A DNA stretch of 64,000 bases from an uncultured Actinomycetes bacterium (GCA_963750255.1 CAVVPZ010000009.1:322069-386068), one strand, 5' to 3'. Counted from the first letter of the stretch, positions 6,142 through 34,718 are shown. Numbers and translations: made by a program. Notes: generated by a model from the letters alone, not told the origin.

Positions 6142-7593
6142 GTGTCGACGCGTGGAATCCGACGGTTGAGGGCCTCGGTCGCCGTGGCCGGCGCCCTCGC
6201 TCTGGCACTCGTGACCACGCCGGCGCTGGCCGTCGGAACCGACCCGGGGTTGCCCCAACAGTGGGGGTTGGCCCAGATCGGTGCTCCGCAGGCCTGGGCC
6301 GGTGGGGCGCTGGTCGGCGCCGGGGTGCCCATCGCCATCATCGACACGGGTGTCGACCTCACCCACCCCGACCTCAAAGGCCAGATCGCCACGGCCGTCA
6401 CCTGCGTCGGCACCAAGGGCGATCCGGCCAAGTGCGTGACCGACGGCGCCGACATCGAGGGGCACGGCACCCACGTGGCCGGCATCGCCGCCGCCGCCGC
6501 CAACGACATCGGCGTGTCGGGCGTCGCCCCCGGCGCCCGGATCATCGCCGTGCGCGTCTTCGCCAAGGACAGCAACGGAGATTTCACGGCCGGATCCGAC
6601 GACATCAACGCGGGGATGAAGTGGGTGATCGGTCACGTCCCCGGCCCGGGCGTGTTCAACCTCAGCCTCGGGGGTGACTTCGTCGTGACGACCGTGTTGT
6701 CGGCGTCGTTCTCCGACGGCATCGAGGCGGCCTGGAGCGCGGGATGGCTGTCGGTGCTGGCCTCGGGCAACGAGAACTATTTCGGCCTCGGCTCGTCCAA
6801 CTACGGCAACCTGCACGCCATCGTCGTCGGCGCCACCGGTCCCGACGGCAAGCTGGCCGGCTACTCGAGCCCGACCGGCAACACGAAGTGGGCCGTCGCC
6901 GCCCCCGGCGGCAACGCGTCGTCGTGCAACGACGAACCGGCCAAGTGCGTGCTGTCGACCTACAAGGGTGGGGAGTACGCCTTGTTGCAGGGCACCTCGA
7001 TGGCCACACCACACGTGGCCGGGGCCGCCGCGCTCCTGCTCGGAGCCGGCCTCTCGAATCAGGCGACGGTTGATCGCTTGTTGTCGACGGCCAACAAGGG
7101 CTTGTCGTGCGGGTCGAGTTGCGCCGGACGGCTCGACGTGGCCAAGGCGGCGTCTGGCCTGGCGCCGGCCGGGTCGAGCGGCGGAGGGTCCGCGTCGACC
7201 ACGATCCCGGCGACGACGGTGACGTCGACGACGGCTCGACCCGCCGCCGGCGGCGGGTCGACACCGAGTCGAGTTCCTTCGACCACTGCGCCTCGTTCGT
7301 CGTCGTCGACGTCGGCCGGGACTCCATCCGTCGACGACCCCACGGCCACGTCGGGTCCCGAACCGGCGGTGCCCTCGGCCGAGCCGCCGGCCTCGGATGG
7401 GGTCACCGACCTCTCGATCGGCGAGGCCGAGGCCGCCATCGCCGAGGGCGCCCCAGCCTCCCGACCGCCGCTGCTGGCCGTGATCGTCGGCGGCCTGGCC
7501 GTCGTCCTCGCCGCCGGAGCCACCACCCGCACCGTTTTGGGCAGGACCAGAGCGCGATCGCGCTCTGACGCTGCCCAAAACGGGAGGGGTTAG
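6142..7593 (+). CDS. S8 (subtilisin-family) serine protease with signal peptide, S/T/P linker and C-terminal membrane anchor
   Basis: Catalytic triad IDTG / HGTHVAG / GTSMATPHVAG. Confidence 0.92.
   Translation: MSTRGIRRLRASVAVAGALALALVTTPALAVGTDPGLPQQWGLAQIGAPQAWAGGALVGAGVPIAIIDTGVDLTHPDLKGQIATAVTCVGTKGDPAKCVTDGADIEGHGTHVAGIAAAAANDIGVSGVAPGARIIAVRVFAKDSNGDFTAGSDDINAGMKWVIGHVPGPGVFNLSLGGDFVVTTVLSASFSDGIEAAWSAGWLSVLASGNENYFGLGSSNYGNLHAIVVGATGPDGKLAGYSSPTGNTKWAVAAPGGNASSCNDEPAKCVLSTYKGGEYALLQGTSMATPHVAGAAALLLGAGLSNQATVDRLLSTANKGLSCGSSCAGRLDVAKAASGLAPAGSSGGGSASTTIPATTVTSTTARPAAGGGSTPSRVPSTTAPRSSSSTSAGTPSVDDPTATSGPEPAVPSAEPPASDGVTDLSIGEAEAAIAEGAPASRPPLLAVIVGGLAVVLAAGATTRTVLGRTRARSRSDAAQNGRG
7532..7583. 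repeat. 52-bp palindromic REP-like element, family A copy 1
   Basis: CCGTTTTGGGC-N6-AGAGCGCGATCGCGCTCT-N6-GCCCAAAACGG; second copy at 29358-29409. Confidence 0.8.
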
Positions 7594-8222
7594 AGCTTGC
7601 GAAGGACGGTGACGACTTTGCCGAAGATGGTGACGTCGGCCTCGTCGAACTCCATGGGCGAGAAGCGCTCGTTGGCAGGGAGCAGGACGACCTTGGAGCC
7701 CTTGCGGGTGTAGGTCTTGACCGTGGCCTCCTCGCCCGGGATGCCGGCGACCACGATCTCGCCCTTGTTGGCCTCGGGCTGTTGGCGGACGACGACGTAG
7801 TCGCCGTCGAGGATGCCGGCGTCGATCATCGACTCACCGCGGACCCGGAGCATGAAGACCGAGCCGGGACCGGTGAAGTCCTCGGGCAGGGGCAGGAGCT
7901 CTTCGACGTTTTCGTGGGCGAGCACGTCGGTGCCGGCGGCGACGTCGCCGAGGAGGGGCACGTGACGAACCCGGCCCTTGTCGACGGCGGCACCAGACTC
8001 GGCGTCGTAGCGGACCTCGATGGCGCGGGGCTTGGTCGGGTCGCGGCGCAGATACCCGAGCTGTTGGAGGCTGGCGAGGTGGGCGTGGACCGTCGACGAC
8101 GACGTCAACCCCACGGCCTCGCCGATCTCGCGCACCGAGGGCGGATAGCCGCGCTCGCGCAGGCACGACTCGATGAAGTCGAGGATGGCTCGCTTCTTGC
8201 CACTCAGCTGGGTGTCGGGCAC
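7590..8222 (-). CDS. lexA: SOS repressor LexA
   Basis: GYPPSVREIG HTH, VAAG cleavage site, GESM (Ser) and ATVK (Lys) dyad; GTG start at 8222. Confidence 0.97.
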   Translation of the reverse strand: MPDTQLSGKKRAILDFIESCLRERGYPPSVREIGEAVGLTSSSTVHAHLASLQQLGYLRRDPTKPRAIEVRYDAESGAAVDKGRVRHVPLLGDVAAGTDVLAHENVEELLPLPEDFTGPGSVFMLRVRGESMIDAGILDGDYVVVRQQPEANKGEIVVAGIPGEEATVKTYTRKGSKVVLLPANERFSPMEFDEADVTIFGKVVTVLRKL

Positions 8223-8264
8223 GTCGGCAGCTCCTAAGAGAGTTGGGAGTCGGGCGGTCAGGGG

Positions 8265-8386
8265 TCGAACGTGTGTTCCACAGAAACGTAACATCGCTGG
8301 TGGGCGGTGGCAAACATTTGTTCGGTTTCTGGTTGACACGAACGGGCGTTCGGGTATTGGATGGTGGCCAGGGAACGCACGTTCGG
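8265..8386. promoter_or_regulatory. Four Gram-positive-type SOS boxes (GAAC-N4-GTTC) between lexA and the LysM gene
   Basis: TCGAACgtgtGTTCCA 8265-8280; GCAAACatttGTTCGG 8310-8325; ACGAACgggcGTTCGG 8338-8353 next to TTGACA 8333-8338; GGGAACgcacGTTCGG 8371-8386. Confidence 0.88.
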
Positions 8387-8423
8387 TTCCCACCCCACAC
8401 GAACCACCCGCCCGGAGGCCCCG

Positions 8424-8813
8424 ATGGCAGCCATCACCTTCACCCCCGATCGCAGTTTCCGCCCGGCGCCCCGTCGCCGCCCGGTCCCGTCCGGCGTGTA
8501 CCTCCGCCGGCGGCTGGCCGCCGTGGCCCTCGTTCTCGGCATCCTCCTGGCCGGCAGCTGGGTGCTGGGTGCCCTCGGGGGCGGTTCCCTCACCGCCTCC
8601 GAGGCTGGATCTGGGTCGGCGACGCTGACCCTCGAGCCCGTGGCCCGGTCCACCTACGTCGTCGCTCCCGGCGACACGCTGTGGTCCATCGCCCGACGCT
8701 TCGCCCCGGAGGGGGATGTCCGACCGGTGGTCGACGCGCTCGCCGCCCACCGCAACGGACGCCCCCTCCAGGTCGGCGAACGCCTCGAGTTGCCTCTCGG
8801 CGTCACGCCGTAG
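8424..8813 (+). CDS. Membrane LysM protein, probable SOS cell-division inhibitor (ChiZ/YneA/DivS-like)
   Basis: YLRRR, a TM helix and a LysM domain (YVVAPGDTLWSIA); GGAGG RBS; divergent from lexA and upstream of nrdR. Confidence 0.85.
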   Translation: MAAITFTPDRSFRPAPRRRPVPSGVYLRRRLAAVALVLGILLAGSWVLGALGGGSLTASEAGSGSATLTLEPVARSTYVVAPGDTLWSIARRFAPEGDVRPVVDALAAHRNGRPLQVGERLELPLGVTP

Positions 8814-8861
8814 CGTCGAGCGGTGACGGGCCGCCCTGGTCGCGTCGGTAGCGTGGCCGGC

Positions 8862-9357
8862 GTGCGTTGCCCGGGGTGTGCAGGAGTCGACGACAAAGTC
8901 ATCGACTCCCGCACCGCCGACGAGGGCGCCGCCATTCGCCGCCGGCGGGAGTGCCTCACCTGCGGGCGACGGTTCACGACCTACGAACGCCTCGAAGAGG
9001 CGCCGCTGATCGTGGTCAAGCGATCGGGCCAGCGGGCCCCCTTCGACCGACAAAAGATCGTGGCCGGCATCCGGGCCGCGGCCAAGAACCGTCCCGTGCA
9101 CGAGTCGGCCCTCGACACGCTGGTGTTCGAGATCGAGGAGGCGCTGCGTCTCGAGGGGCCCGAGGTGGCCACCGAGGCAGATCGGTCGCGCGGTGCTCGA
9201 CCGTTTGCGCGAACTCGATGAGGTCGCCTACCTCCGGTTCGTCAGCGTCTACAAGGGATTCGAAGATCTGACCGACTTCGAGCGCGAGGTCGTGCTGCTC
9301 ACCCGGCCGCCCGGCGACGCCGCTTCGCCGTCTTCGGAGGCCGACCCCAGCCCGTAG
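8862..9357 (+). CDS. nrdR: Transcriptional repressor NrdR (frameshift near 9177)
   Basis: [30 protein letters not shown] zinc ribbon, ATP cone, and [12 protein letters not shown] in the shifted frame. Confidence 0.95.
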
Positions 9358-9367
9358 GGTGATCTCC

Positions 9368-10396
9368 ATGCGAATCGGTGTCCTGACCGGTGGAGGCGAC
9401 TGTCCCGGCCTCAACGCCGTCATTCGAGCCGTGGTCCGCAAGGGCGAACAGCACTACGGCGATGATTTCGTCGGCTTCCGCGACGGCTGGCGGGGACCGA
9501 TCGAGGGCCTGACGATGGAGCTCGACGTCGAGCGATGCCGCGGCATCCTGCCTCGTGGCGGCACCATCCTCGGCTCGTCGCGCACCAACCCGTACAAGAT
9601 CGAGGGCGCCGTCGACCGGCTCAAGGCCACGCTGGCCGACCTGTCCGTCGACGCGCTCGTGGCCATCGGTGGCGAGGACACGCTCGGCGTCGCCCACAAG
9701 TTGGCCGGTGAAGGCGTGGCCGTCGTCGGCGTGCCCAAGACCATCGACAACGACCTCAACGCGACCGAGGTCACCTTCGGTTTCGACACCGCGGTGCAGG
9801 TGGCCACCGACGCCATCGACCGGCTCCACACCACCGCTGAGAGCCACGATCGCGTGCTCGTGTGCGAGGTGATGGGACGCCACGCCGGGTGGATCGCCAC
9901 CCACGCTGGTATCGCCGGTGGCGCGGCCGAGGTCCTCGTCCCCGAGGTCGCCTTCGACATCGACAAGGTGTGCTCCGACCTCAAGAAGCGCCACGAAAAG
10001 GGGCGCTACGCCTCGATCGTCGTCGTGGCCGAGGGGGCCCGGCCAAAAGAGGGCACGATGGTCGTGTCCTCCGGCGAGGTCGATGCCTTCGGCCATGTCC
10101 GTCTCGGCGGCATCGGCCAGATGCTGGCCGAGGAGATCGAGAAACGCACGGGATTCGAGACCCGGGTGACCGTGCTCGGCCACATCCAGCGGGGCGGCAC
10201 GCCGACGGCGTTCGACCGAGTCTTGGCCACGCGATTCGGGGTCGCGGCCATCGACGCGGCCCACGACGGCGACTTCGATTGCATGGTTGCGCTCCAGGCT
10301 GGGCAGATCGTTCGTGTGCCTCTCGCCGACGCTGTCACTGAACTCAAGACCGTGGACCCTGGCCTCGTCGCCGTGGCCGAGTTGTTCCATGGCTGA
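9368..10396 (+). CDS. pfkA: 6-phosphofructokinase (actinobacterial group III type)
   Basis: TGGGDCPGLN, GGTILGSSR, GGEDT, PKTIDND, EVMGR, LGHIQRGG. Confidence 0.96.
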   Translation: MRIGVLTGGGDCPGLNAVIRAVVRKGEQHYGDDFVGFRDGWRGPIEGLTMELDVERCRGILPRGGTILGSSRTNPYKIEGAVDRLKATLADLSVDALVAIGGEDTLGVAHKLAGEGVAVVGVPKTIDNDLNATEVTFGFDTAVQVATDAIDRLHTTAESHDRVLVCEVMGRHAGWIATHAGIAGGAAEVLVPEVAFDIDKVCSDLKKRHEKGRYASIVVVAEGARPKEGTMVVSSGEVDAFGHVRLGGIGQMLAEEIEKRTGFETRVTVLGHIQRGGTPTAFDRVLATRFGVAAIDAAHDGDFDCMVALQAGQIVRVPLADAVTELKTVDPGLVAVAELFHG

Positions 10397-10850
10397 ACCC
10401 ATCCGCCAGATCAGCGTGGGGCGCATCATCGATGCCCCCGCCGAACGCATCTTCGCCCTGTTGAGCGACGCCGCCCGGCACCACGAGATCGACGGATCGG
10501 GCACCGTGCGCGCCGCAGCCTCAGCCCCGGAGCGGCTGACGCTCGGCTCCAAGTTCTCGATGGGCATGCGCTTCGGCGTGCCCTACCGCACATCCAACGA
10601 AGTCGTCGAATACGAGGAGAACCGACGCATCGCGTGGTGCCACTTCGGCAAGCACCGGTGGCGGTACGAGCTCGAACCCCAGGCTGACGACCGCACCCTC
10701 GTGCGGGAGACCTTCGACTGGTCGACGGCAGTCAGCCCCCGTGTGATCGAGTTGATCGGGGCGCCAGCCCGCAACCAGCCGGCCATGGAGCGCACGCTCG
10801 AGCGGCTGGCCGACGTCATGGCCGCCGAGCAACGGCGGGAGACCGCGTGA
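10389..10850 (+). CDS. SRPBCC family protein
   Basis: IDAPAERIF..HHEIDGSGTV..WRYELEP..VRETFDW. Confidence 0.85.
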   Translation: MAEPIRQISVGRIIDAPAERIFALLSDAARHHEIDGSGTVRAAASAPERLTLGSKFSMGMRFGVPYRTSNEVVEYEENRRIAWCHFGKHRWRYELEPQADDRTLVRETFDWSTAVSPRVIELIGAPARNQPAMERTLERLADVMAAEQRRETA

Positions 10851-11674
10851 GCGACGACCGCACCGTGTTGACGACGGGCGCCAACTCAGGCATCGGCTTG
10901 GCCACCGTGATCGAGGTGGCGCGCCGCGGGTTCCGTTCGGTGGGCTCGGTGCGATCCGACGCCAAGGCCGAAGTCGTCCACGACGCGGCCAAGACCGCGG
11001 GTGTCGAGGTCGAGACGGTGCTGCTCGACGTGACCGATGCCGACCAGTGCGAGCGGGCCATCGCCGGACTCCACCTCTTCGGACTCGTCAACAACGCCGG
11101 CTATGCCGTGACCGGGGCCATCGAAGACGTCGGCGACGACGAGGCCCGCGCCCTCTTCGAGACGATGGTGCACGCGCCGATGCGTCTGGCCCGCCTCGCG
11201 CTTCCGGCCATGCGCATCTCCGGTGGAGGCCGCATCGTCAACGTATCGTCGATCGCCGGACGCACCTCGGCCCCTTTCGCCGGCCACTACACCGGGGCCA
11301 AGCACGCCCTCGAGGCGATGTCCGACGCACTCCGGATGGAGGTGGCGGGCGCCGGTATCAAGGTGGTGTTGGTCGAGCCGGGCGGGTTCAAGACCGGCAT
11401 CTGGGAAGAGTTCGAGCGCGACGTCGCCAAGCGGGAGGCGGCCGGATCCCGCTACGTCGACGCGTACCGGCGGTCGTTGCAGGGCCAACGGTTCATGGAG
11501 CCGATCATGGGTAACCCCGAGGCCTGCGCTCGCGTGATCGCCACCGCGCTCACCTCTCGCCTGCCCCGCTCCCGCTACCTCGTCGGCCTCGACGCCCAAG
11601 CGATGAGCGTGGCCGACGCGTTGACCCCGACCTTCCTCAAGGACCGCTTCCTGCGCCTCGGGCTCGGCATCTGA
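10847..11674 (+). CDS. SDR family oxidoreductase
   Basis: TGANSGIG, NNAG, YTGAK. Confidence 0.93.
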   Translation: MSDDRTVLTTGANSGIGLATVIEVARRGFRSVGSVRSDAKAEVVHDAAKTAGVEVETVLLDVTDADQCERAIAGLHLFGLVNNAGYAVTGAIEDVGDDEARALFETMVHAPMRLARLALPAMRISGGGRIVNVSSIAGRTSAPFAGHYTGAKHALEAMSDALRMEVAGAGIKVVLVEPGGFKTGIWEEFERDVAKREAAGSRYVDAYRRSLQGQRFMEPIMGNPEACARVIATALTSRLPRSRYLVGLDAQAMSVADALTPTFLKDRFLRLGLGI

Positions 11675-23327: not shown

Positions 23328-24300
23328 CTACCCCTTGGCCGTGGGGACGGGAACGGAGCCGAGCACGTCGTCGAGCAGGTCGCCCTGCCCTGCGCCCGAC
23401 ATCGAGGCCTCGGGCGTGAGGACCAGCCTGTGCTCGAGCACGGGGCCGGCCAGCGCCTTGAGGTCGTCGGGGAGTACGAACTCTCGTCCGACCGAGGCGG
23501 CCAACGCGCGAGCGGCCCGCATGAGCGAAAGGGTGCCGCGGGGCGAGACGCCGAGGGCCAGGCGAGGGTGGCGGCGGGTGGCGTCGGCCAGATCGACGAG
23601 GTACCCCTTGAGGCTCGGCGCCACGTGGACGGTGGCGGCCAATCCGGCCATCTCCTCGATGTCGCCCGACGTCACCACCGGCTTGACGGCGTCGACCTGG
23701 CTGATGCCGTGGTTGTCGAGGATCTCGATCTCCGACACCTTGTCCGGGTAGCCCATCTCGATCCGCATGAGGAACCGGTCGAGTTGGCTCTCGGGCAACG
23801 GATAGGTGCCTTCGTGCTCGATCGGGTTTTGGGTGGCGATGACCATGAAGGGCTTGTCGAGGAGGTAGGTGGTGGAGTCGACCGTGACCTGACGTTCTTC
23901 CATGGCTTCGAGGAGTGCCGACTGGGTTTTGGGACTGGCCCGGTTGATCTCGTCGCCGAGCACGACGTTGGCGAAGATCCCGCCGTGGCGGAACTCGAAC
24001 TTGTCGCTGTTGCGCTTGTAGACCATCACGCCGGTCACGTCGCTCGGCAACAGGTCGGGCGTGAACTGGATCCGGCTGTACTCACCATCGATGGACCGGG
24101 CCAGCGCCTTGGCCAGGCTCGTCTTGCCCACGCCGGGGACGTCCTCGATCAGGAGGTGACCCTCGGCCACCATGCAGACGAGCGCGAGGCGGATGGCGTC
24201 CTCTTTGCCCGAGATCACGGTGGCGACGTTGTCGACCACGGAATCGAACCGGTCGGCGAAGGACGAAATGCCGCGCTGCCGACGTTCGCTGTCTGGCCAT
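23328..24300 (-). CDS. moxR: MoxR-proper AAA+ ATPase (indel just after the ATG)
   Basis: EDVPGVGKT, RIQFTPDLLPSD, DEINRASPKTQSALLEAM, TQNP, QLDRF; TAACCT-N7-ATG at 24300. Confidence 0.95.
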
Positions 24301-26043: not shown

Positions 26044-26053
26044 CGTGGAGGGC

Positions 26054-27323
26054 ATGGACGTCGCCTATCCCCCCGAGGCCGAGACGTACCGGGAAAAGGT
26101 GCAGGCCTTCTTGGCCGAACATCTCCCGGCCGGGTGGCAGGGCATCGGCGCCCTCGGTCACGACGAGGCGGCGGCGTTCACCGAGGACTGGCGCACGATC
26201 CTCTTCGAGAACGGCTACCTGGCCGTGTCGTGGCCCAAGGAGTACGGGGGTCAAGCGCTCAGCTCGCTCGAGCAGGTCGTCCTGGCCGAGGAGTTCGCTC
26301 GAGCCGGCGTGCCCGCCGGTGGACCCAACGACGTGTTCGGCATCCAGATGGTCGGCAACACGATCATCCAGTGGGGCACCGAGGAGCAGAAGCGACACTT
26401 CCTGCCCCGCATCCTCTCGGGCGAGGATCGCTGGTGTCAGGGCTACAGCGAGCCCAACGCCGGATCCGACCTCGGCAACCTCGGCTGCCGGGCCACGCTC
26501 GACGGCGACGAGTGGACGATCAACGGCCAGAAGATCTGGACGTCGGCCGGCCATCTGGCCAACTGGATCTTCGTCCTCACTCGCACCGACCCGACGGCCC
26601 CGAAGCACAAGGGCATCACGTTCTTGTTGGTGCCGATGGACCAACCCGGCATCGAGGTCCGGCCCATCAAGATGATCTCGGGCGAGTCGGAGTTCAACGA
26701 GGTGTTCTTCACCGACGCCCGCACCCCGAAGTCCAACGTGATCGGCGAGGCCAACGGCGGGTGGGCGGTGGCGATGACCCTTCTCGGCTACGAGCGGGGC
26801 GAGGCCGCGGCCACGTTGCCGATCCGGTTCCGGACCGAACTCGACCGGCTCATCGAGTTGGCCCGCGAGCGGGGCCGGGCCGACGACCCGATCGTCCGCC
26901 AACGACTCGCCGACTGTTTCACCAAGGTCGAGCTGATGCGCTATCTCGGCATGCGGGCGCTGACCGCGTTCCTCGCCGGCTCCCAGCCCGGTCCCGAGGC
27001 CTCGATCTCGAAGGTGTTCTGGAGCGAGTACCACCAGCAGTCGACCGAGTTGGCCATGGACATCCTCGGCCTCGACGGCCTCGTCCCCACGGGCCGTCCG
27101 CCGGCTCCGCGCGTTCCAGACCGACGACCCCGGCGCGCCCAACGACAGCGCCTCGTGGGCCGGCGTCTTCCTCAACGCGAGGGCGGGCACCATCTACGCC
27201 GGAACGTCGCAGATCCAGCGCAACATCATCGGCGAGATGGTGCTCGGCCTGCCCAAGGAACCACGTGCCGACGGCGGTCCGTGGGCTCGCACCGGAGCGG
27301 GAACATCGTCCGAGACGCCCTAG
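26054..27323 (+). CDS. Acyl-CoA dehydrogenase (frameshift near 27105)
   Basis: [28 protein letters not shown], and [16 protein letters not shown] in the shifted frame ending at TAG 27323. Confidence 0.93.
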
Positions 27324-27734
27324 GGCCCCAACTCACGGCCCGCGAGTTGTACGCCTTGTTGCGGCTGCGATCTGAGGTGTTCGTCGTCGAGCAGGACTGT
27401 GTCTACGCCGACCTCGACGGTCGCGACCTCGATCCGACGACCCACCACTTCTGGATCGACAATGGCGGAGACATCATCGCCGCCGTCCGCGTCCTGGCCG
27501 GCGTCGACGGATCGGGCTCGATCGCTCGGCCGAGTGGTCACCGAATCGCGTCACCGCCGGCAAGGCCACGCGGCCACGCTCATCGCCGCGGCCCTCGTCG
27601 GGGCCCGTCGCCCGGTTCGCATCCACGCCCAGGCCCACCTGACCGAGTGGTACGCCCGATTCGGGTTCGCCGTCGACGGCGACGAGTTCGACGAGGACGG
27701 CATCGCGCACCGGCCGATGGTGCTGACGTCGTGA
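27281..27734 (+). CDS. elaA: ElaA-like GNAT acetyltransferase (frameshift near 27525)
   Basis: [27 protein letters not shown]; LGRVVT..AQAHL..WYARFGF..EDGIAH. Confidence 0.85.
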
Positions 27735-27988
27735 GCGGCCGCTGGTTCGGACGCGCGGCGCTGGCCGTCCTCTCCCGCCCGGGGCTGTGGATCACCGCGC
27801 TCGTCCAGGTGCTTCGCCTGGCACGACCGGGGTGGTGGCGCCACTGGCCCCCGCTTCCCGTGCCCGACGCCGCCTACCTCCGCTTCCGTCTGCAGACGCA
27901 GTACGGCGACATCGATCGCGAGCCCGACCCGGCCGACGTCGTCACCTACCTCCACTGGTGCCGGGGCTACGGACGGGCGGCGCGGTAA
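27731..27988 (+). CDS. Small hypothetical protein
   Basis: 85 aa, GTGA-coupled to the upstream gene; [29 protein letters not shown]. Confidence 0.7.
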
Positions 27989-28056
27989 TCTGCCCGACGA
28001 TGCGGGTCCTCCCACCACCGGGCGGGCGCCGAAGGGCGCCACGGTAGGTCCCGGTC

Positions 28057-28590
28057 ATGTCGCGAGCGCTCGTCCTCAATGCGTCCTACGAGCCGCTCTG
28101 CGTCGTCGCCACCCGACGGGCCCTCGTCTTGGTGCTCGACGAGAAAGCCGAGTTGTTGTCCGACACGGGCCGCGAGTTCCATTCCGCCCGCGCTGCCTTC
28201 CCCGAACCGTCGGTCGTGCGCCTGTTGACCTTCGTGCGCGTGCCGTTCCGCACCCGGGTCGCCCTCAACCGCCGGGCCGTGTTCCTCCGCGACGGCCACC
28301 GCTGCCAGTACTGCGACGCGCCCGCGGAGAACATCGACCATGTCGTTCCCCGCAGCCGGGGCGGGACGCACGCCTGGGACAACGTGGTCGCCGCCTGCCG
28401 ACCCGTGCAACGCTCGCAAAGAGGACCGGCTGCTCACCGAGGTCACGACCATGAGGCTGCGCCGGCCCCCGTCGCCCCCACCGGCCGCACCTGGATGTTG
28501 CTGGCCATGGGCGCGCTGCGGCCCGAGTGGCGGCCCTACCTGCGCCTTCCGGAAGGCGAGGTTCGTACCCCAGCGGGGCTTTCCGCCTAA
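28057..28590 (+). CDS. HNH endonuclease (conserved actinobacterial type; two compensating indels)
   Basis: LVLNASYEPL, RDGHRCQYC..IDHVVPRSRGG..NVVAAC(R)PCNARK. Confidence 0.9.
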   Translation: MSRALVLNASYEPLCVVATRRALVLVLDEKAELLSDTGREFHSARAAFPEPSVVRLLTFVRVPFRTRVALNRRAVFLRDGHRCQYCDAPAENIDHVVPRSRGGTHAWDNVVAACRPVQRSQRGPAAHRGHDHEAAPAPVAPTGRTWMLLAMGALRPEWRPYLRLPEGEVRTPAGLSA

Positions 28591-28624
28591 TTGACGGTTG
28601 TCTCAAGCAGGATCGGGGCCGTTG

Positions 28625-29357
28625 ATGGCGAATGTCACACCAGGGCTTGGCGGGGGCGGTCGGGGGGACCGCCCGCGCCAGCCCGGTTCGCTCTCCACTC
28701 ACTGGCGTGTGGAGCAGAACCGTGGGGGCGCCGGTTCGCTGTTTTCGAACAGCGAACCGGCCGCGCCCGCAGCCCGATCGGTGCGGATCCTCACCGTCGA
28801 TCGTCCGGCGTTGGTGCTCGGGTCGACCCAGATCGTCGATGACGGGCTCGGCGGACGAGCGAGCGCCGCAGGCGTGGAGATCGTCCGGCGCCGGAGCGGC
28901 GGCGGCGCCGTGTTGTTGCGGACCGATGAGGTCGTCTGGGTCGACGTCGTGGTACCCGCCGGCGATCCGCTCTGGTCCGACGACGTGGGCCGGGCGTTCT
29001 TCTGGCTCGGTCGCGTGTGGGCCGACGCTGCTCACCGCCGTCGGGGTGGCCGGCGTGGTCGTTCATGAGGGTGGGCTGGTGGCAACGCCCTGGTCGCACG
29101 CTGTCTGTTTCGCCGGCGTCGGCCCTGGCGAGGTGGTCCGAGGCCAGGGCAAGGTCGTGGGCATGGCCGCCCGCCGCACCCGCCACTGGGCCCTCTTCCA
29201 GTGCGCCGTGCCCCTCCTGTGGGACCCCCGGGCCTATGTCGACCTCCTCGGCCTCCCGGCCGCCGCCACGGGCTCGCTTGCCTCCGTCGCCTCCCCGGTG
29301 GCCGCCGTGGACGGCGACGCGCTCGTCGCTCGGTTCTGCGAGGGCCTCCCTACCTAG
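28625..29357 (+). CDS. Lipoate-protein ligase family protein (frameshift near 29025; start uncertain)
   Basis: ALVLGSTQ, VRRRSGGGAVLL, CFAGVGPGEV..KVVG. Confidence 0.85.
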
Positions 29358-29409
29358 CGGTTTTGGGCTTCGTGAGAGCGCGATCGCGCTCTCACGAAGC
29401 CCAAAACGG
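29358..29409. repeat. 52-bp palindromic REP-like element, family A copy 2
   Basis: Perfect 48-bp palindrome 29360-29407 centred on GCGCGATCGCGC; starts immediately after the ligase TAG stop. Confidence 0.82.
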
Positions 29410-29896
29410 GGTGGTGGCCCGCTCGAGGGCGGCGCGGAGGGCGGCCTCGGCCGCCTCGGCCCGGGCCTCGGCCACCCGGGCCCGTTCGGTGGCCGCAGCA
29501 CAGGCGAGCTCGGCCAGGCGGACGATGGCCGCAGGGGTCGACATGGCGGACTCCTCGGCGGCTTCGGATCGGGCTGCGCCGGTACGTGGCCCGGTGCGGG
29601 GCGAGCGCGACGCCCGGTCGAGCACCGCTTCGAGGGGCACGAGCCGCTGCACCCCGTGGGGGCCGGGGGTGAGGCGCGAAGCGATGACGCCGTTGCGGTA
29701 CCACGTACGCAGCGTCGAGCCGGGACACGCCGGCCTGGCGCTCGGCGTCGGCCAGCGACACCCAGGTGTCTCCGGGGTGGGGGCGAAGGGTGGCGAGCTC
29801 CGCCTCGAGGTCGAACTCTCGGCTCCACTGGCGCACCAGGTGTCCGAGTTCGACGATCTCCTCAGCGACTTCCTCGGCGACTTCCTCGTTTGGCAC
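29392..29896 (-). CDS. MerR/excisionase-like HTH protein with C-terminal coiled coil (frameshift near 29720)
   Basis: Joined frames read WVSLADAERQAGVSRSTLRTWYRNGVIASRLTPGPHGVQRLVPLEAVL...ERARVAEARAEAAEAAL; TTGACC-17-TATCGT-N7-GTG start. Confidence 0.75.
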
Positions 29897-29903
29897 GGAG
29901 CTC

Positions 29904-29947
29904 ACGATAGACAGGGTGTTGACAGGGGTCAAGCATGGTGGTCGAAT
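29904..29947. promoter_or_regulatory. Back-to-back sigma70-type promoters with interlocked -35 elements
   Basis: Plus strand TTGACA(29919-24)-17 bp-TCGAAT(29942-47)-6 nt-ATG; minus strand TTGACC(29932-27)-17 bp-TATCGT(29909-04)-7 nt-GTG; GACAGGG direct repeat at 29910 and 29921. Confidence 0.7.
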
Positions 29948-29953
29948 GGGTTC

Positions 29954-30835
29954 ATGTTCGAACGATTCACTGATCGGGCCCGCCGGGTGCTGGTGCTGGC
30001 CCAAGACGAGGCCACCGCCCTCAACCACTCCTTCCTGGGCACCGAGCACGTGCTGCTCGGCCTGCTGGCCGAGGGCCAGGGCGTGGCCGCCAAGGTGCTC
30101 GTCGAGTTGGGGGCCGACCTCGAGGCAATGAGGACCCGGGTCGTCGAGACCGTCGCCGCCGGTGCGCCTGGGTCGGTCACCGGTCCTCAGCCCTTCACGC
30201 CCCGGGCCAAGCGGGTGCTCGAGTTGTCGTTGCGCGAGGCGCTCGACCTCGGGCACAACTACATCGGGACCGAGCACATCATCCTGGGGTTGATCAAGGA
30301 GGGAGAAGGCGTCGGCGCCGAGGTGTTGCGGCAGTCCGGGTTCCAGGCAGCCGACGTTCGGGCCAAGGTCATCGAGTTGCTCGCCGGCTACACCCCTGCG
30401 CCCCGGCCGGTGTCGGCCACCCCGCCGGCGGCGCCGGCAAAAGCGACCACCCCGGCGGTGAACCTGTTGCGCACCAGGGCGGTTGCTCGTGCCGGGGCCG
30501 AGCCGCTCGGTTCCCACCACTTCCTCGCCGCGCTCCTCGAAGACCCCAACTGCCTGGCGGCACGGGTGCTGGAGTCGTTGGGTGTGACCCGCACCGCGGT
30601 CGAGGTCCGCGTGGCCGAACTGGGGACGGCGGGCTCGACCGACGCCATGCCCGATCCCCCCGGTCCGGCCGTGTTCCCGCTCGGCGCCGGGATGGCGCTG
30701 ACGATCGGCGACGACGACCTCGCGGCCCAGGCCAAGGCGTGGTTCGGTACCGGAGATCGCACCCCGGCCCAGTTGGTCGAGTGGCTGCGCCAGCGGCTGG
30801 AACAGGAGCCGCCGCCCACCCCGCCTGCCCCCTGA
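29954..30835 (+). CDS. Stand-alone Clp N-terminal repeat protein without ATPase (ClpC2/ClpC3-like)
   Basis: MFERFTDRARRV..GTEHVLLGL; FTPRAKRVLELSLREA..GTEHIILGL; third degenerate repeat GSHHFLAALL; no Walker motifs. Confidence 0.88.
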   Translation: MFERFTDRARRVLVLAQDEATALNHSFLGTEHVLLGLLAEGQGVAAKVLVELGADLEAMRTRVVETVAAGAPGSVTGPQPFTPRAKRVLELSLREALDLGHNYIGTEHIILGLIKEGEGVGAEVLRQSGFQAADVRAKVIELLAGYTPAPRPVSATPPAAPAKATTPAVNLLRTRAVARAGAEPLGSHHFLAALLEDPNCLAARVLESLGVTRTAVEVRVAELGTAGSTDAMPDPPGPAVFPLGAGMALTIGDDDLAAQAKAWFGTGDRTPAQLVEWLRQRLEQEPPPTPPAP

Positions 30836-30859
30836 GCTCGAGCGTGACAAGGTGGTGCC

Positions 30860-31952
30860 GTGCCCTCCCAGGACGTGACCGTCGAAGCCCTCGGACTCGC
30901 GGTGGCCGCCGGCGTTCCGGTGCTGTTGTGGGGCGCGCCCGGGACGGGCAAGACCAGCGCCATCGCCGCGTTGGCCGAGGCCGCCAGCCTCCCGTTCGAG
31001 ACGGTCATCGCCGCCATCCGCGAACCGTCCGATTTCAGCGGCCTGCCCGTCGTGGTCGATGGCGTGGTTCGCTTCGCGCCCCCGCGGTGGGCCGAGCGCC
31101 TGGCCGACGCGGGCCGGGGGCTCCTCTTCCTCGACGAGATCTCGACGGCGCCGCCGGCTGTGCAGGCGGCACTCTTGCGGGTCGTGCTCGAACGGGTGGT
31201 GGGCGACCTCGCCCTCCCGTCCGACGTCGTCGTGGTGGCGGCCGCCAACCCGCCCGAGCAGGCCGCCGACGGGTGGGACCTCTCGGCCCCGCTGGCCAAC
31301 CGGTTCTGTCATCTCGATTGGGACGTCGACCCGATGGGATTCGCCGAAGGCATCGCCGGGGGCTGGAAACCGGCCCGGGTGCCGACGCTGCCCGAGGGCT
31401 GGGAGACGACCTGGCCGCGCGCCCGCGGCATGGTCTCGGCCTTCGTCACCGTTCGCCCGTCCTCACCCTCGACGTGCCCGTCGACGGCGCCCGCGCCGGG
31501 CGGGCGTGGCCCAGCCCCCGCACCTGGGAGATGGCCGCTCGGCTCTGGACGGCGGCCGATGTGGCCGGCGCCAGCCTCGAGGCGCCGAGCCGCCTTGATC
31601 TCGGGAGCGATCGGCGATGCCGCCGGCCTCGAGTTGCTGACCTGGCACCACGAGATGGATCTGCCCGACCCTGAAGCCGTGCTGGCCGACCCCGATGGCG
31701 TCGAGTTGCCCGACCGCGGCGACCGCGCCTACGCCGTGTTGTGCGTCGGTGGCCGCGGCCGTCGCCGCCGATCCGACGATCGAGCGGTGGAACGCCGGCT
31801 GGCGGGTGCTGGCCCGGGCCGGCGAACGGGCGCCGGACGTCGCCGCCGTCGCCGCCCGCGTGCTGGCCCAGTGTCGGCCGGAAGGGGCCGCGGCCCCGCC
31901 CGAGGTCAAGCTGTTCCTCCCCTTGCTCCGGGACGCCGGCCTCTTTTCTTGA
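30860..31952 (+). CDS. MoxR-like AAA+ ATPase of the DUF2201-associated type (about 3 frameshifts in the 3' half)
   Basis: WGAPGTGKT, IREPSDFSGLP, LLFLDE, AANP, LANRF, WPSPRTWE, MDLPDPE. Confidence 0.9.
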
Positions 31953-33230
31953 TCGTCGAACCGGGTCCGCGACGCACCTCGACCGCCACCGTTGGCGGCG
32001 GCTCGCTTGTGGGCCGCCAACCGCTTCCCCTACCTCGCGTCGGCCCTGTTCGCCACCGGGGTGATCGAACGTGAGGGCCTCGGCGGCGACGGGGTGGCCG
32101 TCGACGCCGAGTGGCGGCTCTACATCGAGCCCGCGGTGGCGGCCCGGTTCTCGGTGGCCGAACTCGGCGCGCTCCTCGTGCATCACACCGGCCACCTCAT
32201 TCGCGACCACGCTGGACGAGCCGAGACCTTCGGCGTCGGCGAGTCGACGGCCGAGCGGTGGTCGACAGCGGCCGACGCAGAACTCAACGACGATCTCGCC
32301 GACGTCGGCATCGTCGTGCCCGGCAAGGCCATCCTTCCCGAGCACCTCGGCTTCGAACGCGGGCGGTTGGCCGAGGAGTACTTCGCTCGCAGGCGGGCAC
32401 AGCCCCCGACCGAACCCGACGAAGACGACCCCGACGGGGACGCCGGGGAGCCGACGTCGGATCACGGCAGCGGCGCGCACGGACACCACCGGCCGTGGGA
32501 GGACCCGAGCGGCGACGAGAGCGCCGGCGACCAGCCACCGGGATTGACCAAGCACGAGCGCGACTTGTTGCGGGCCCAGACCGCCCAGCAGATGCTCGAC
32601 GCCGTACGCACCGGGCAGGGCAACGTGCCCGGCAGTTGGCAGCGATGGGCCGAAGAGCTCCTGGCGCCGACCGTCGACTGGCGCCACGCCCTCGCGGCCG
32701 AGGTCAGGCGCGGCGTCCAGCATGTGGCCGGCGCCGTCGACTACAGCTATCGACGCCCGTCGCGACGGGCCTCGACGAGTCCGACCATCGTCCTACCAGC
32801 GCTGGAGAAGCCGGTGCCCGAGGTCGCCGTCGTGTGCGACACGTCGGGCTCGATGGGCGATCGGCAACTGGCCCGGGTGCTGGGTGAGGTCGAGGGCATT
32901 CTCGGCGGGATCGGCCTGCGCTCCCGGGGGGTGCGGGTGCTGGCCGTCGACGCCAGCGTGCAGACCGTGCGCCGGGTGTCGTCGGCCCGCCAGGTCGAGC
33001 TGATCGGTGGCGGTGGTACCGACATGTCGCGGGGCATCGAGGCCGCGGTTGCGCTCCGGCCCCGCCCCTCGGTGCTCGTCGTGCTCACCGACGGCCTCAC
33101 GCCGTGGCCCGAACGGGCGCCCCGAGGCGTTCGTGTCGTCGTGGGCATGCTGACCGATGCTCCCGGGGCGAGCCGCCTCCCGCCGACCCCCGGTTGGGCC
33201 CGGGTCGTCCGCATCGACGACGAGCGGTGA
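31949..33230 (+). CDS. DUF2201-type protein: N-terminal metallopeptidase-like domain plus C-terminal vWA domain
   Basis: ARLWA..PYLASALF, AVD..WRLY, HHTGHLIRDH, AADAELND, YRRPSRR, MIDAS DTSGS/GGGTD/LTDG; start approximate (indel near 31975). Confidence 0.88.
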
Positions 33231-33972
33231 ACCCAGGCCCGCCTCGAGCACGGCCCGCGTCGCGCCGGTGGGCCCGCCGGCTCCCTTCCGTGAGCGTGGA
33301 AATCCCGTGCGGCGGTGCCGTGCATCGCGTCGTCCTGCGTCGTGGGCGGCTGGCGCTCGCCGACCACAGTGTCGGCGCCGAAGCCGTCGCGGTGTCGTTG
33401 GGCGCGCCTTCGCCGCCGTGCTTCGAGGTGTTTCGCAGCTGGCGAGCCCGCCCGCTGTGGGAGGAGGCGTTGCAACCTCGCGGCCCCGGCTTCCACCAGT
33501 TGTACCGCCGGCCGCCCCTGCCCAAGGAGCTGGCGATGCCACTCGAACGGGGCGTCGTGCGGGGTTGGGAGCGGCGGGCCGATCGTGAGGGGGCGCGGCG
33601 GCGGGCATGCTCGATCGAGCGACGCGAGCTCGGGCCGAGCCAACCCTGCGGTCGGCACTGGCGTCGGCGATACGCAGCCACGGCGGCGGACCCGTCGAGC
33701 GGCTCGAGCTCTCGATCGGCTCGTCGTGTTGGGCGTGGGGGAGGATCGACGACCAGGGCTCGTCGTTGCTCGTCCGCGTCACCTCCGACTGGTTGCGCAC
33801 CGTCGGCATGGCTCAGTCGGCAACCCAGCCCGGGGAGCCAAACACGTTCGTGGTCCAGGCCCGGCTGGGTCCGACCCCCGCCCTCGTCGTGGCATGGGCG
33901 GCGGCCGGTGACGGCGCCGTCGTGGCCCGGTTGGCCCCGGCTGGGCCCACGACGCGCAACTCCGAAGCGTGA
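33227..33972 (+). CDS. Hypothetical protein A, paralog of the next gene (frameshift near 33600)
   Basis: GTGA-coupled to the vWA gene; VEIPCGGAVH..LADH..AEA..LG..PPCFEVFRSWR; continues as MLDRA..VTSDWLRTV. Confidence 0.75.
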
Positions 33973-34718
33973 CGTGGTGTCGCGGTGTGCCGGCTCTCGA
34001 TGTCGAGGTCGCGTGCGGCGGTCGACGTCACACCGTGCGGTGGCGGCGAGGCTCGTTGGTGCTCGTCGACCATGACGCGGCCGCCGAAGCGGCCGTGGCC
34101 GCGCTCGGCGGTGAGGCCCCCGCGTGCCTCGAGGTGCTCCGCTCGTGGCGCGACGGCTACGTCGAGGCTGAACACGACGGCGCCGTCGCCGGCCTGGTGC
34201 GCCCCTTGTCGAGCCTGGCCCGCTGGATGAGTGGCGCCGGTCCGCTTCCGGTGTACCTCCCCGAGCCGCTCCGGCGTCTCCGCGAGACCAGCATCGCCGC
34301 CACCTGGGCCCGCGGCCTTCGCGAACCGCAGGCATCGGCCGCCGCAGCCCAGACGTTCTACGACCGGGCCGTGGCCCGTCGGCTACGCGAGGTGCTGGTC
34401 GTGCAGGCTCGATCGGTGGGGGCGGTCGACCCCGACGTCGTCGTGATCGTCAGCGATGATCCCGACGATCTCGAGGGCGTCGGCCGATGCGAGGGCACGC
34501 GAGCGATCGTCCGAGTGACCGTCGCACGCACCTGGCTGACCGACGTCTGGGCGCCCGGAGTCGAGTGGTCCGGCGCCGACGTCGTGGTGCATCCGCGCCG
34601 ACCTCACGCCACGGTTCTCCGGTGGGACCGGGACGAGGGCGGTTCGGGTTTGGCGCTCGCCCTCGGCGCCGAGCGCGACCCTCAGGCCAACTGGCGAAGA
34701 ATGCCGGCGGTGTCTTGA
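33969..34718 (+). CDS. Hypothetical protein B, paralog of the previous gene
   Basis: GTGA-coupled; VEVACGGRRH..LVDH..AEA..LG..PACLEVLRSWR..YDRA..VARTWLTDV. Confidence 0.8.
   Translation: MTWCRGVPALDVEVACGGRRHTVRWRRGSLVLVDHDAAAEAAVAALGGEAPACLEVLRSWRDGYVEAEHDGAVAGLVRPLSSLARWMSGAGPLPVYLPEPLRRLRETSIAATWARGLREPQASAAAAQTFYDRAVARRLREVLVVQARSVGAVDPDVVVIVSDDPDDLEGVGRCEGTRAIVRVTVARTWLTDVWAPGVEWSGADVVVHPRRPHATVLRWDRDEGGSGLALALGAERDPQANWRRMPAVS

Follow-up and report, generated by a model that had tools for sequence, protein, structure and literature searches.

The stretch of DNA considered here covers positions 29392-34718 of a 64,000-nucleotide (nt) sequence from an uncultured Actinomycetes bacterium, and this whole 64,000-nt sequence is referred to as the window. 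The window has a G+C content of ~72%, and its source is a genome bin of 13 contigs that is 85% complete; in the public record, the close relatives of the window are labelled Acidimicrobiales. Reading frames and Pfam scans place six genes in the stretch, and these six genes are real. A preliminary description, made from the sequence alone, had taken all six to be one system, with a helix-turn-helix (HTH) gene divergent from five co-oriented genes. The layout is as it was described, while the identity of the HTH gene is weak and its copy in the window, which is frameshifted, has no Pfam match. The genes are the following.

29392-29896, minus strand: HTH gene, weakly MerR/excisionase-like, with a frame change at ~29718; it matches, in two frames, an intact 167-residue ortholog in the same-genus genome G004.
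29954-30835, plus strand: Clp_N protein, matching Pfam Clp_N (2.2e-34) in three stretches; residues 1-149 are followed by a C-terminal extension of ~145 residues.
30860-31952, plus strand: AAA+ ATPase of ~365 residues when intact, with three frame changes, delimited by Pfam and by alignment to the G004 ortholog.
31992-33230, plus strand: protein of 412 residues, assigned by Pfam, with an N-terminal, zincin-like DUF2201_N domain and a C-terminal DUF2201 domain of the von Willebrand factor A (vWA) type.
33227-33972, plus strand: paralog A, the more divergent copy, in which the consensus residues W25 and D36 are changed; frame change at ~33595.
33969-34718, plus strand: paralog B, intact, 249 residues, with invariant C16, H35, C53, W60, W189 and W219, and with H21 at least 90% conserved.

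Paralogs A and B both carry the pattern C-x4-H-x13-H-x17-C, and their family is called C-H-H-C below. The last four genes had been described as joined by TTGA and GTGA stop-start overlaps, and two of the three junctions are of this kind: GTGA joins vWA to A at 33227-33230 and A to B at 33969-33972. At the AAA+ stop codon (31950-31952), the overlapping TTG does not share the frame of the vWA open reading frame (ORF), the first in-frame start of which is TTG at 31992, so that the vWA gene starts 39 nt downstream of the ATPase gene.

To find out what is conserved at this locus, species-representative genomes were scanned with a vWA alignment as query, since the C-H-H-C alignment has no conserved stretch that is long enough, and the best 80 of 332 related loci were analysed. 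Upstream of the vWA gene, 73 of the 80 loci have an AAA+ match, and the other seven have less than 600 nt of sequence on that side. A C-H-H-C gene accompanies the AAA+/vWA pair in 69 of the 80 loci, and its position is distributed as follows.

Same strand, at most 600 nt downstream of the vWA gene: 57/80 loci.
At most 600 nt upstream of the AAA+ gene: 10/80 loci, Streptosporangiaceae-type.
About 2.7 kb upstream: 2/80 loci.
Absent, with room on both sides: 5/80 loci.
Absent, with little upstream room: 1/80 loci.
Untestable, the contig ending at the vWA gene: 5/80 loci.

The case for joint action of the three genes is carried mainly by the survival of their linkage through changes in gene order across distant lineages. 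The same picture emerges from 41 related genomes. When B is used as query, 16 of the 41 match, including all 12 in the family of the window. DUF2201_N occurs in 14 of them, with one copy in each, and a C-H-H-C gene is adjacent in 11 of the 14; the exceptions are G010 and two genomes with distant DUF2201 proteins. Genomes of the same genus keep the order Clp_N, AAA+, vWA, A, B, while other genera and families have AAA+, vWA and one C-H-H-C gene. At the level of the phylum, all five genomes checked, two of them large, have DUF2201_N with a same-strand family match within ~2.5 kb, and six of eight DUF2201_N places have a family match nearby, G410 having two further places without one. A broader search matched 0 of 120 other genomes at class level and 9 of 300 at phylum level; with only 21 or 8 candidates scored per genome, absences at both levels are soft. 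The conserved unit, which occurs in many Actinomycetota, consists of three genes, AAA+, vWA and one C-H-H-C, and not of six, and the six-gene arrangement of the preliminary description is a lineage-specific elaboration of this three-gene module. Its assignment of the paralogs to the AAA+/DUF2201 pair is upheld by the 69 loci, on either side of the pair, and by the five phylum-level genomes; its view that two paralogs make up the core is not, since one gene is typical and, among the 80 loci, tandem pairs are found only in three, all from the window's genus.

The ATPase belongs to the MoxR class, as judged by its Pfam scores, its Walker motifs and the adjacent vWA gene. The scores are modest, with 35.5 bits for AAA_5 (cut-off 22), 36.2 for AAA_3 (27) and 35.1 for bpMoxR (27), and the Walker A motif GAPGTGKT is found at residue 25 and the Walker B motif LFLDE at residue 89. 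The best sequence matches in the PDB are midasin, PspF and ZraR, with the MoxR entry 2r44 reaching only 0.0018, and in PADLOC-DB there are generic AAA+ matches only, of at most 29 bits. Four nt before the GTG start at 30860 lies AAGGTGG (30849-30855), which contains the segment CAAGGT that had been put forward as a -10 element of the ATPase gene's own (CAAGGT-N6-GTG). It reads better as the ribosome-binding site of this gene, and a promoter scan is empty there. A second AAA+-like stretch occurs in the window at 23817-24209 (minus strand), with 31% identity to the module ATPase over 137 residues (E 4e-5).

In the vWA protein, both DUF2201_N (3.4e-33, 115.8 bits) and DUF2201 (9.2e-21, 74.7 bits) score above their Pfam cut-offs (families PF13203 and PF09967). 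The metal ion-dependent adhesion site (MIDAS) motif is complete, with DTSGS at 283, GGGGTD at 339 and LTDG at 365, and its residues are invariant in 55 vWA sequences. The N-domain carries HHTGH at residue 64 in the position of the zincin motif HExxH, which we take to be what defines the family of DUF2201 vWA proteins. Over the 80 loci this position has HHxxH in 74, HExxH in two, HQxxH in one and is unmatched in three. The catalytic glutamate has thus been replaced in the clade of the window, and the N-domain is probably not a working peptidase, since it has HHxxH where a distant member of the family (L030) has HEVLH. The two loci whose vWA protein keeps a true HExxH, as HELAH, are L098 and L084.

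The ATPase matches phrog_1297 at 1.4e-50 and the vWA protein matches phrog_1314 at 5.9e-40, and because both match PHROG families, related ATPase/vWA pairs exist in phages. A tblastn search with the vWA protein against phage records gave one weak match, in a jumbo phage. The label of phrog_1314 is 'HNH endonuclease', which misfits the domains and looks to have been carried over from the annotation of one record; the observation also covers Agrobacterium phage Atu_ph07, 202634-202966.

That A and B are paralogs is shown by a match of B to the region of A with 51% identity over 59 residues (E 1.4e-13), and by one of the G004 ortholog of A to B with 29% identity over 232 residues (E 1e-17). The residues W3, C16, G28, H35, G47, C53, W60, W189 and W219 are invariant in 52 C-H-H-C sequences, with H21 at 90% or more; B retains this consensus, while A has lost two nearly invariant residues. 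The Cys-His-His-Cys set is probably a metal site. An AlphaFold2 model of B has two domains (pLDDT 80.4, pTM 0.76, these being the program's own confidence scores), and the N-domain modelled alone gives a confident β3-α2 fold (pLDDT 90.2), the C-domain being α/β. For the full-length model, the best Foldseek E in the PDB is 0.07 and the best VIA-wide Z is 2.9, and for the N-domain model the best values are 2.6 and 3.7; neither model has a convincing match, and none can be claimed. From the absence of a PDB match it does not follow that the fold is new.

A profile search of 1.84 billion representatives returned 1452 proteins with E at or below 1e-3, 740 at or below 1e-10 and 148 at or below 1e-30, most of them 230-320 residues long. 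C-H-H-C proteins have no match in Pfam, NCBIfam, PADLOC or PHROG, in line with the earlier statement that the paralogs were not recognised as any named family; in 14 members scanned individually, no Pfam domain was found apart from one read-through artefact, and a search of the ESM Atlas gave no usable match. Members that appear by name are all annotated 'hypothetical protein'. These searches show a large C-H-H-C family, of at least 1452 sequence clusters, that is unnamed and has neither a domain model nor a detectable solved fold. The architecture varies somewhat: in L098 (7513-8817) and L084 (7601-7882), the loci that keep HELAH, what follows the C-H-H-C N-domain is another C-terminus, made of tryptophan-rich repeats, and the 516-residue database protein P0147 has two complete C-H-H-C units in a single chain. 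A protein of 803 residues, P0151, was considered as a Rosetta-stone fusion of DUF2201_N and C-H-H-C and was rejected: its sequence is a read-through, with frameshifts, that takes in the ATPase end, vWA and C-H-H-C. It has out-of-frame stretches, and an indel-rich assembly can in this way mimic a domain fusion.

Duplication of the C-H-H-C gene is a feature of few lineages. Another genome of the window's genus, G003, has a third copy (L005, 930-1577), and in a distant family three tandem copies, which arose independently, follow the vWA gene (G178:C126:6198-8694, minus strand). In a quick tree with branch support from the SH-like approximate likelihood ratio test (SH-aLRT), a clade of B sequences (100) is separate from a clade of A sequences (99), and A clusters with sequences from another genus, which are single copies (93); support for joining all copies of the family is weak (88). 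When 780 pairs from 40 loci are compared, the median pairwise identity is 78% for AAA+, 65% for vWA and 42% for C-H-H-C, and the C-H-H-C protein behaves like a fast-evolving component of the kind that confers specificity. The divergence of the C-H-H-C protein tracks that of the vWA protein with r 0.89, a correlation that shared descent alone could explain.

The two genes to the left of the module differ from it in that their presence is restricted. Clp_N is found in two of the 80 vWA loci and in G010 and G012; the order with HTH and Clp_N divergent and AAA+ following is seen again in these two genomes, which represent two other genera of the family, and in five from the genus of the window, with a spacing from Clp_N to ATPase of 24-160 nt. 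From the locus in G011 and G009, also of this family, Clp_N and HTH are missing, and G024 (70% complete) has the HTH|Clp_N pair without an adjacent ATPase gene and with no C-H-H-C or DUF2201_N match. In G003 (98% complete), where there is no DUF2201_N match, the contig with A, B and the third copy begins inside the cluster, and the contig with HTH|Clp_N continues for 535 nt beyond Clp_N without an ATPase; either loss or an assembly gap may account for this. Clp_N and HTH are an add-on to the module, confined to part of one family, and their earlier inclusion in one system with it is not sustained. The two genes form a divergent cassette that is distinct from the module and has promoters of its own. 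In part of the family it is placed directly upstream of the module, and its transcription may continue into the ATPase gene.

The promoters of the cassette lie in the region between the two starts.

29897-29953, no strand: divergent promoter region between the HTH and Clp_N starts.
29360-29407, no strand: perfect palindrome of 48 nt, read from the sequence, 3' of the HTH gene and of an upstream plus-strand ORF.

On the plus strand, the sequence has TTGACA at 29919-29924, a spacer of 17 nt and TCGAAT at 29942-29947, followed by the ATG at 29954, and on the minus strand a promoter scan gives TTGACC at 29932-29927, a spacer of 17 nt and TATCGT ending at 29904, followed by the GTG at 29896. Both genes look leaderless, and TTGACAG at the -35 position and the start ATGTTCG are invariant in nine of nine orthologous upstream regions. 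The region contains GTTGACAGGGGTCAAG, which doubles as two back-to-back -35 boxes. The palindrome is likely a bidirectional terminator, and it is missing from the output of the terminator scan because it has no T run. The intact HTH ortholog of G004 scores 16.9 bits against both MerR and HTH_17, below the cut-offs of 28.2 and 27, and matches PADLOC mad1 at 3.9e-5; the HTH protein also matches phrog_66 ('excisionase and transcriptional regulator') at 9.8e-5. Residues 1-149 of the Clp_N protein are a close, stand-alone paralog of the ClpC1 N-domain, and a full-length ClpC is encoded elsewhere in the same genome (C1:69529-72102).

Among characterised proteins, the Clp_N protein invites comparison with mycobacterial ClpC2: both stand alone, both are paralogous to the ClpC1 N-domain, and both combine a repeat that overlaps the promoter with a start that appears to be leaderless (for ClpC2, extracts of PMC10030653). 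In ClpC2, according to the same extracts, a DNA-binding region precedes the ClpC1-like part, which occupies the C-terminal 160 residues; here Clp_N is at residues 1-149, the C-terminal half has no DNA-binding match and the HTH is encoded by a gene of its own, in divergent orientation. In a comparison with structures, the Clp_N protein is also much closer to the N-terminal domain of ClpC1 (1.5e-54) than to ClpC2 (2.3e-25), and when the ClpC2-type operator CGTCAAC-n5-GTTGACG is set against GTTGACAGGGGTCAAG upstream of Clp_N, the half-sites have the opposite order.

The module proper is to be compared with couples of a MoxR ATPase and a vWA protein, of which CbbQ/CbbO, CoxD/CoxE, RavA/ViaA and NorQ/NorD are examples. 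As in NorQ/NorD, a small MoxR-class ATPase is encoded beside a vWA protein whose MIDAS is intact, and the gene for a dedicated target lies close by. Unlike NorD, the vWA partner here has a zincin-like DUF2201_N N-domain, and unlike the target of NorQ/NorD, which is a respiratory enzyme, the target here would be small and soluble and would belong to an unnamed family; there is no sequence match to couples of the NorQ/NorD type above general AAA+ similarity. In NorQ/NorD, extracts of the published accounts have the vWA domain plugging the pore of the hexamer and ATP-driven remodelling enabling metal insertion (PMC9976466, PMC13036017).

The nearest thematic analogue that has a zinc-finger protein is YehLPQ of Escherichia coli. 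There, in the operon yehL-yehM-yehP-yehQ, whose function is unknown, a MoxR ATPase and a vWA protein are encoded together with a protein annotated as a Cys/His (SWIM) zinc finger. The module ATPase has 27% identity to that of yeh over 177 residues (E 3e-5), alignment of the vWA proteins is limited to the vWA domain (hhalign probability 82%), and the C-H-H-C profile does not match YehQ (hhalign probability 0.1%); no homology between the third components is seen. The Yeh operon has, in addition, the genes for YehM and a DUF4132 protein. The module further resembles the vWA-MoxR ternary conflict systems in having a MoxR ATPase, with bpMoxR just above its cut-off, a vWA protein and a dedicated third component. 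In these systems, as extracts of the survey by Kaur et al. (2020; PMC7159879) have it, the vWA proteins are 850-1450 residues long with effector domains, and the third component is VMAP, iSTAND, a beta-propeller protein or similar. Here the vWA protein has 412 residues and consists of DUF2201_N and DUF2201 without an effector, the third component has no Pfam domain, and the locus is a syntenic single copy. The module falls outside the ternary conflict systems that have been published. The searches made for literature on the function of DUF2201 or on the AAA+/vWA/C-H-H-C trio found nothing; the three-gene variant of the MoxR/vWA theme is well conserved and undescribed, and the family of its candidate client is new.

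We suggest, with a probability of about one half, that the MoxR ATPase and the vWA protein form a remodelling machine whose dedicated client or adaptor is the C-H-H-C protein. To describe how it could work, consider first the ATPase ring, which by analogy with the characterised MoxR/vWA couples would grip the vWA protein; that the ring acts via the vWA protein is proposed because of the analogy with NorQ/NorD. The MIDAS face and the zincin-like N-domain of the vWA protein would then hold the C-H-H-C protein, and hydrolysis of ATP would remodel this protein, or else either load or remove its metal or partner. In the genus of the window, the duplicated A and B may act as a pair, and pairing is what the two units in one chain of P0147 and the independent tandem copies of G178 point to. 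What the analysis shows is gene content, linkage and motifs, whereas the physical contacts, the binding of metal and the direction of action are what we infer.

Several observations weigh against this reading. Five or six vWA loci have no C-H-H-C gene, and the six negatives remain so at E up to 10 with filters off. In G010, for example, the vWA gene abuts the next gene (SnoaL) and there is no C-H-H-C gene. The 80 loci are kin, mostly Acidimicrobiales, and the counts overstate their independence. The putative metal site is read from four conserved residues, and three of the six genes (HTH, AAA+ and A) are interrupted in the copy of the window. Furthermore, 26 of 46 family matches in the 41 relatives lie away from any AAA+/DUF2201 gene, and in the window's own genome three of the five family copies lie elsewhere, beside unrelated genes. 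The preliminary description had regarded homologs of A and B found mostly without the AAA+/DUF2201 genes as an argument against a joint system. Such unlinked homologs are indeed frequent, but they are other subfamilies of the C-H-H-C family, in conserved contexts of their own with genes for radical SAM, LOG, 2-oxoglutarate (2OG) and TauD oxygenase, MarR and UvrD proteins. One unlinked subfamily (L027, 8351-9268, minus strand, from contig G000:C4) is always preceded by a conserved ORF of ~300 residues without Pfam match, and its flanking genes encode proteins of the radical SAM and LOG families and a 2OG-Fe(II) oxygenase.

The genes around the module allow it to be read as serving DNA repair, with the C-H-H-C protein as a zinc-dependent binder of DNA or of a repair factor, loaded or removed by AAA+/vWA together with a helicase or with a ligase and primase-polymerase (Prim-Pol). 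This we consider unlikely, although it is a real lead. Clustering of ORFs places a same-strand helicase of the superfamily 1 (SF1)/UvrD-like kind directly after the C-H-H-C gene in 15 of the 80 loci, confirmed by Pfam in L070 and L040, and in L040 (7920-10199) it overlaps the C-H-H-C stop. An ATP-dependent DNA ligase is found downstream in eight of the 80 loci, ~20-110 nt after C-H-H-C in seven of the eight and 859 nt after it in L075, and in seven of the 80 a LigD-type Prim-Pol follows further downstream (in L064, ligase at 7585-8931 and Prim-Pol at 10186-11094). In L023, an unlinked paralog and the end of a UvrD/PcrA gene overlap, and a same-strand HNH gene lies upstream across family f1, as it does in the window. 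The helicase and ligase neighbours, however, are each found in one or two subclades and may amount to two inherited arrangements; the window's genus has neither, with a SnoaL-like gene converging on the 3' end of B, and in loci of Streptosporangiaceae type a DUF1275 membrane protein follows instead (12 loci), while the other unlinked paralogs adjoin radical SAM, LOG, TauD and MarR genes. Structure searches of the C-H-H-C models found no nucleic-acid-binding fold, and a literature search gave no paper linking these genes. It may be recorded separately that the DUF1275 gene (for example L096, 7067-7933, and in 11 other loci) follows vWA in Streptosporangiaceae-type loci with the order C-H-H-C, AAA+, vWA and also in some loci without C-H-H-C. 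A bolder extension, which we regard as improbable, is that C-H-H-C proteins are an undescribed class of metal-dependent sensors or adaptors, with a fold absent from solved structures, that AAA+/vWA loads onto or strips from DNA-repair assemblies with SF1 helicase or with LigC-type ligase and Prim-Pol, as a bacterial counterpart of the AAA+-driven extraction of repair factors, and that the unlinked paralogs are further clients of that one machine.

The six genes could also make up a stress or conflict system, in which the HTH protein regulates, AAA+/vWA acts on the paralogs as effectors, and what Clp_N senses is proteotoxic stress, phosphoarginine or a compound that targets ClpC1. The recurrence of HTH|Clp_N before AAA+ in seven genomes fits such a system, as do the lack of a terminator-like site between Clp_N and the ATPase gene in the terminator scan and the existence of MoxR-vWA ternary conflict systems (extracts of PMC7159879), and the mycobacterial ClpC1-N-domain paralog ClpC2 is, as stated in extracts of PMC10030653 and PMC13345244, a ligand-responsive repressor. 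We nevertheless hold it to be improbable as well. Besides the rarity of Clp_N at vWA loci, its absence from the locus in G011 and G009 and the cassette without adjacent ATPase in G024, the PADLOC library of 2023 has no match for vWA, A, B or Clp_N, there is no effector domain and the vWA protein is far shorter than the 850 residues or more of the ternary systems (extracts of PMC7159879). The locus is single-copy and syntenic, with the same housekeeping neighbours across genera, and does not lie in a variable island. A conflict role, as suggested earlier, finds no footing in these results, and a defence role of the module is not supported.

The remaining alternative, that the copy in the window is a decaying pseudogene cluster from which no function can be inferred for this organism, takes its force from five frame changes in 5.3 kb. 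Scored against the intact orthologs of G004, they fall at ~29718 in HTH, at ~31455, ~31575 and ~31740 in AAA+ and at ~33595 in A. They look like assembly indels for four reasons. In the region 26045-29357, flanking genes are frameshifted in the same way against G004, namely an acyl-CoA dehydrogenase gene at ~27106-27111 and the ORF 28625-29351 at ~28900-29029, which points to indel noise throughout the assembly; identity is high on either side of each break, for example 88% after the last one in AAA+; the orthologs are intact in short-read assemblies; and one independent contig, single and of low depth, has an additional G after 31457, at precisely the site of the first break in AAA+. The sequencing runs cover the region with shares of 0.10, 0.05 and 0.00, and their contigs span one of the five break sites. 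With flanking housekeeping genes equally affected in a 13-contig bin, decay is very improbable.

If the module is a remodelling machine with its own client, it bears on a general question about these proteins. MoxR/vWA couples are widespread and their known clients are few, and here a candidate client is encoded alongside the pair in Acidimicrobiales, in Solirubrobacterales, in lineages of Streptosporangiaceae type and in large-genome actinomycetes. The recurring helicase and ligase neighbours suggest a concrete phenotype and give a lead toward DNA repair, and the three-protein module would be a simple system in which to study the action of a MoxR/vWA machine on its target.

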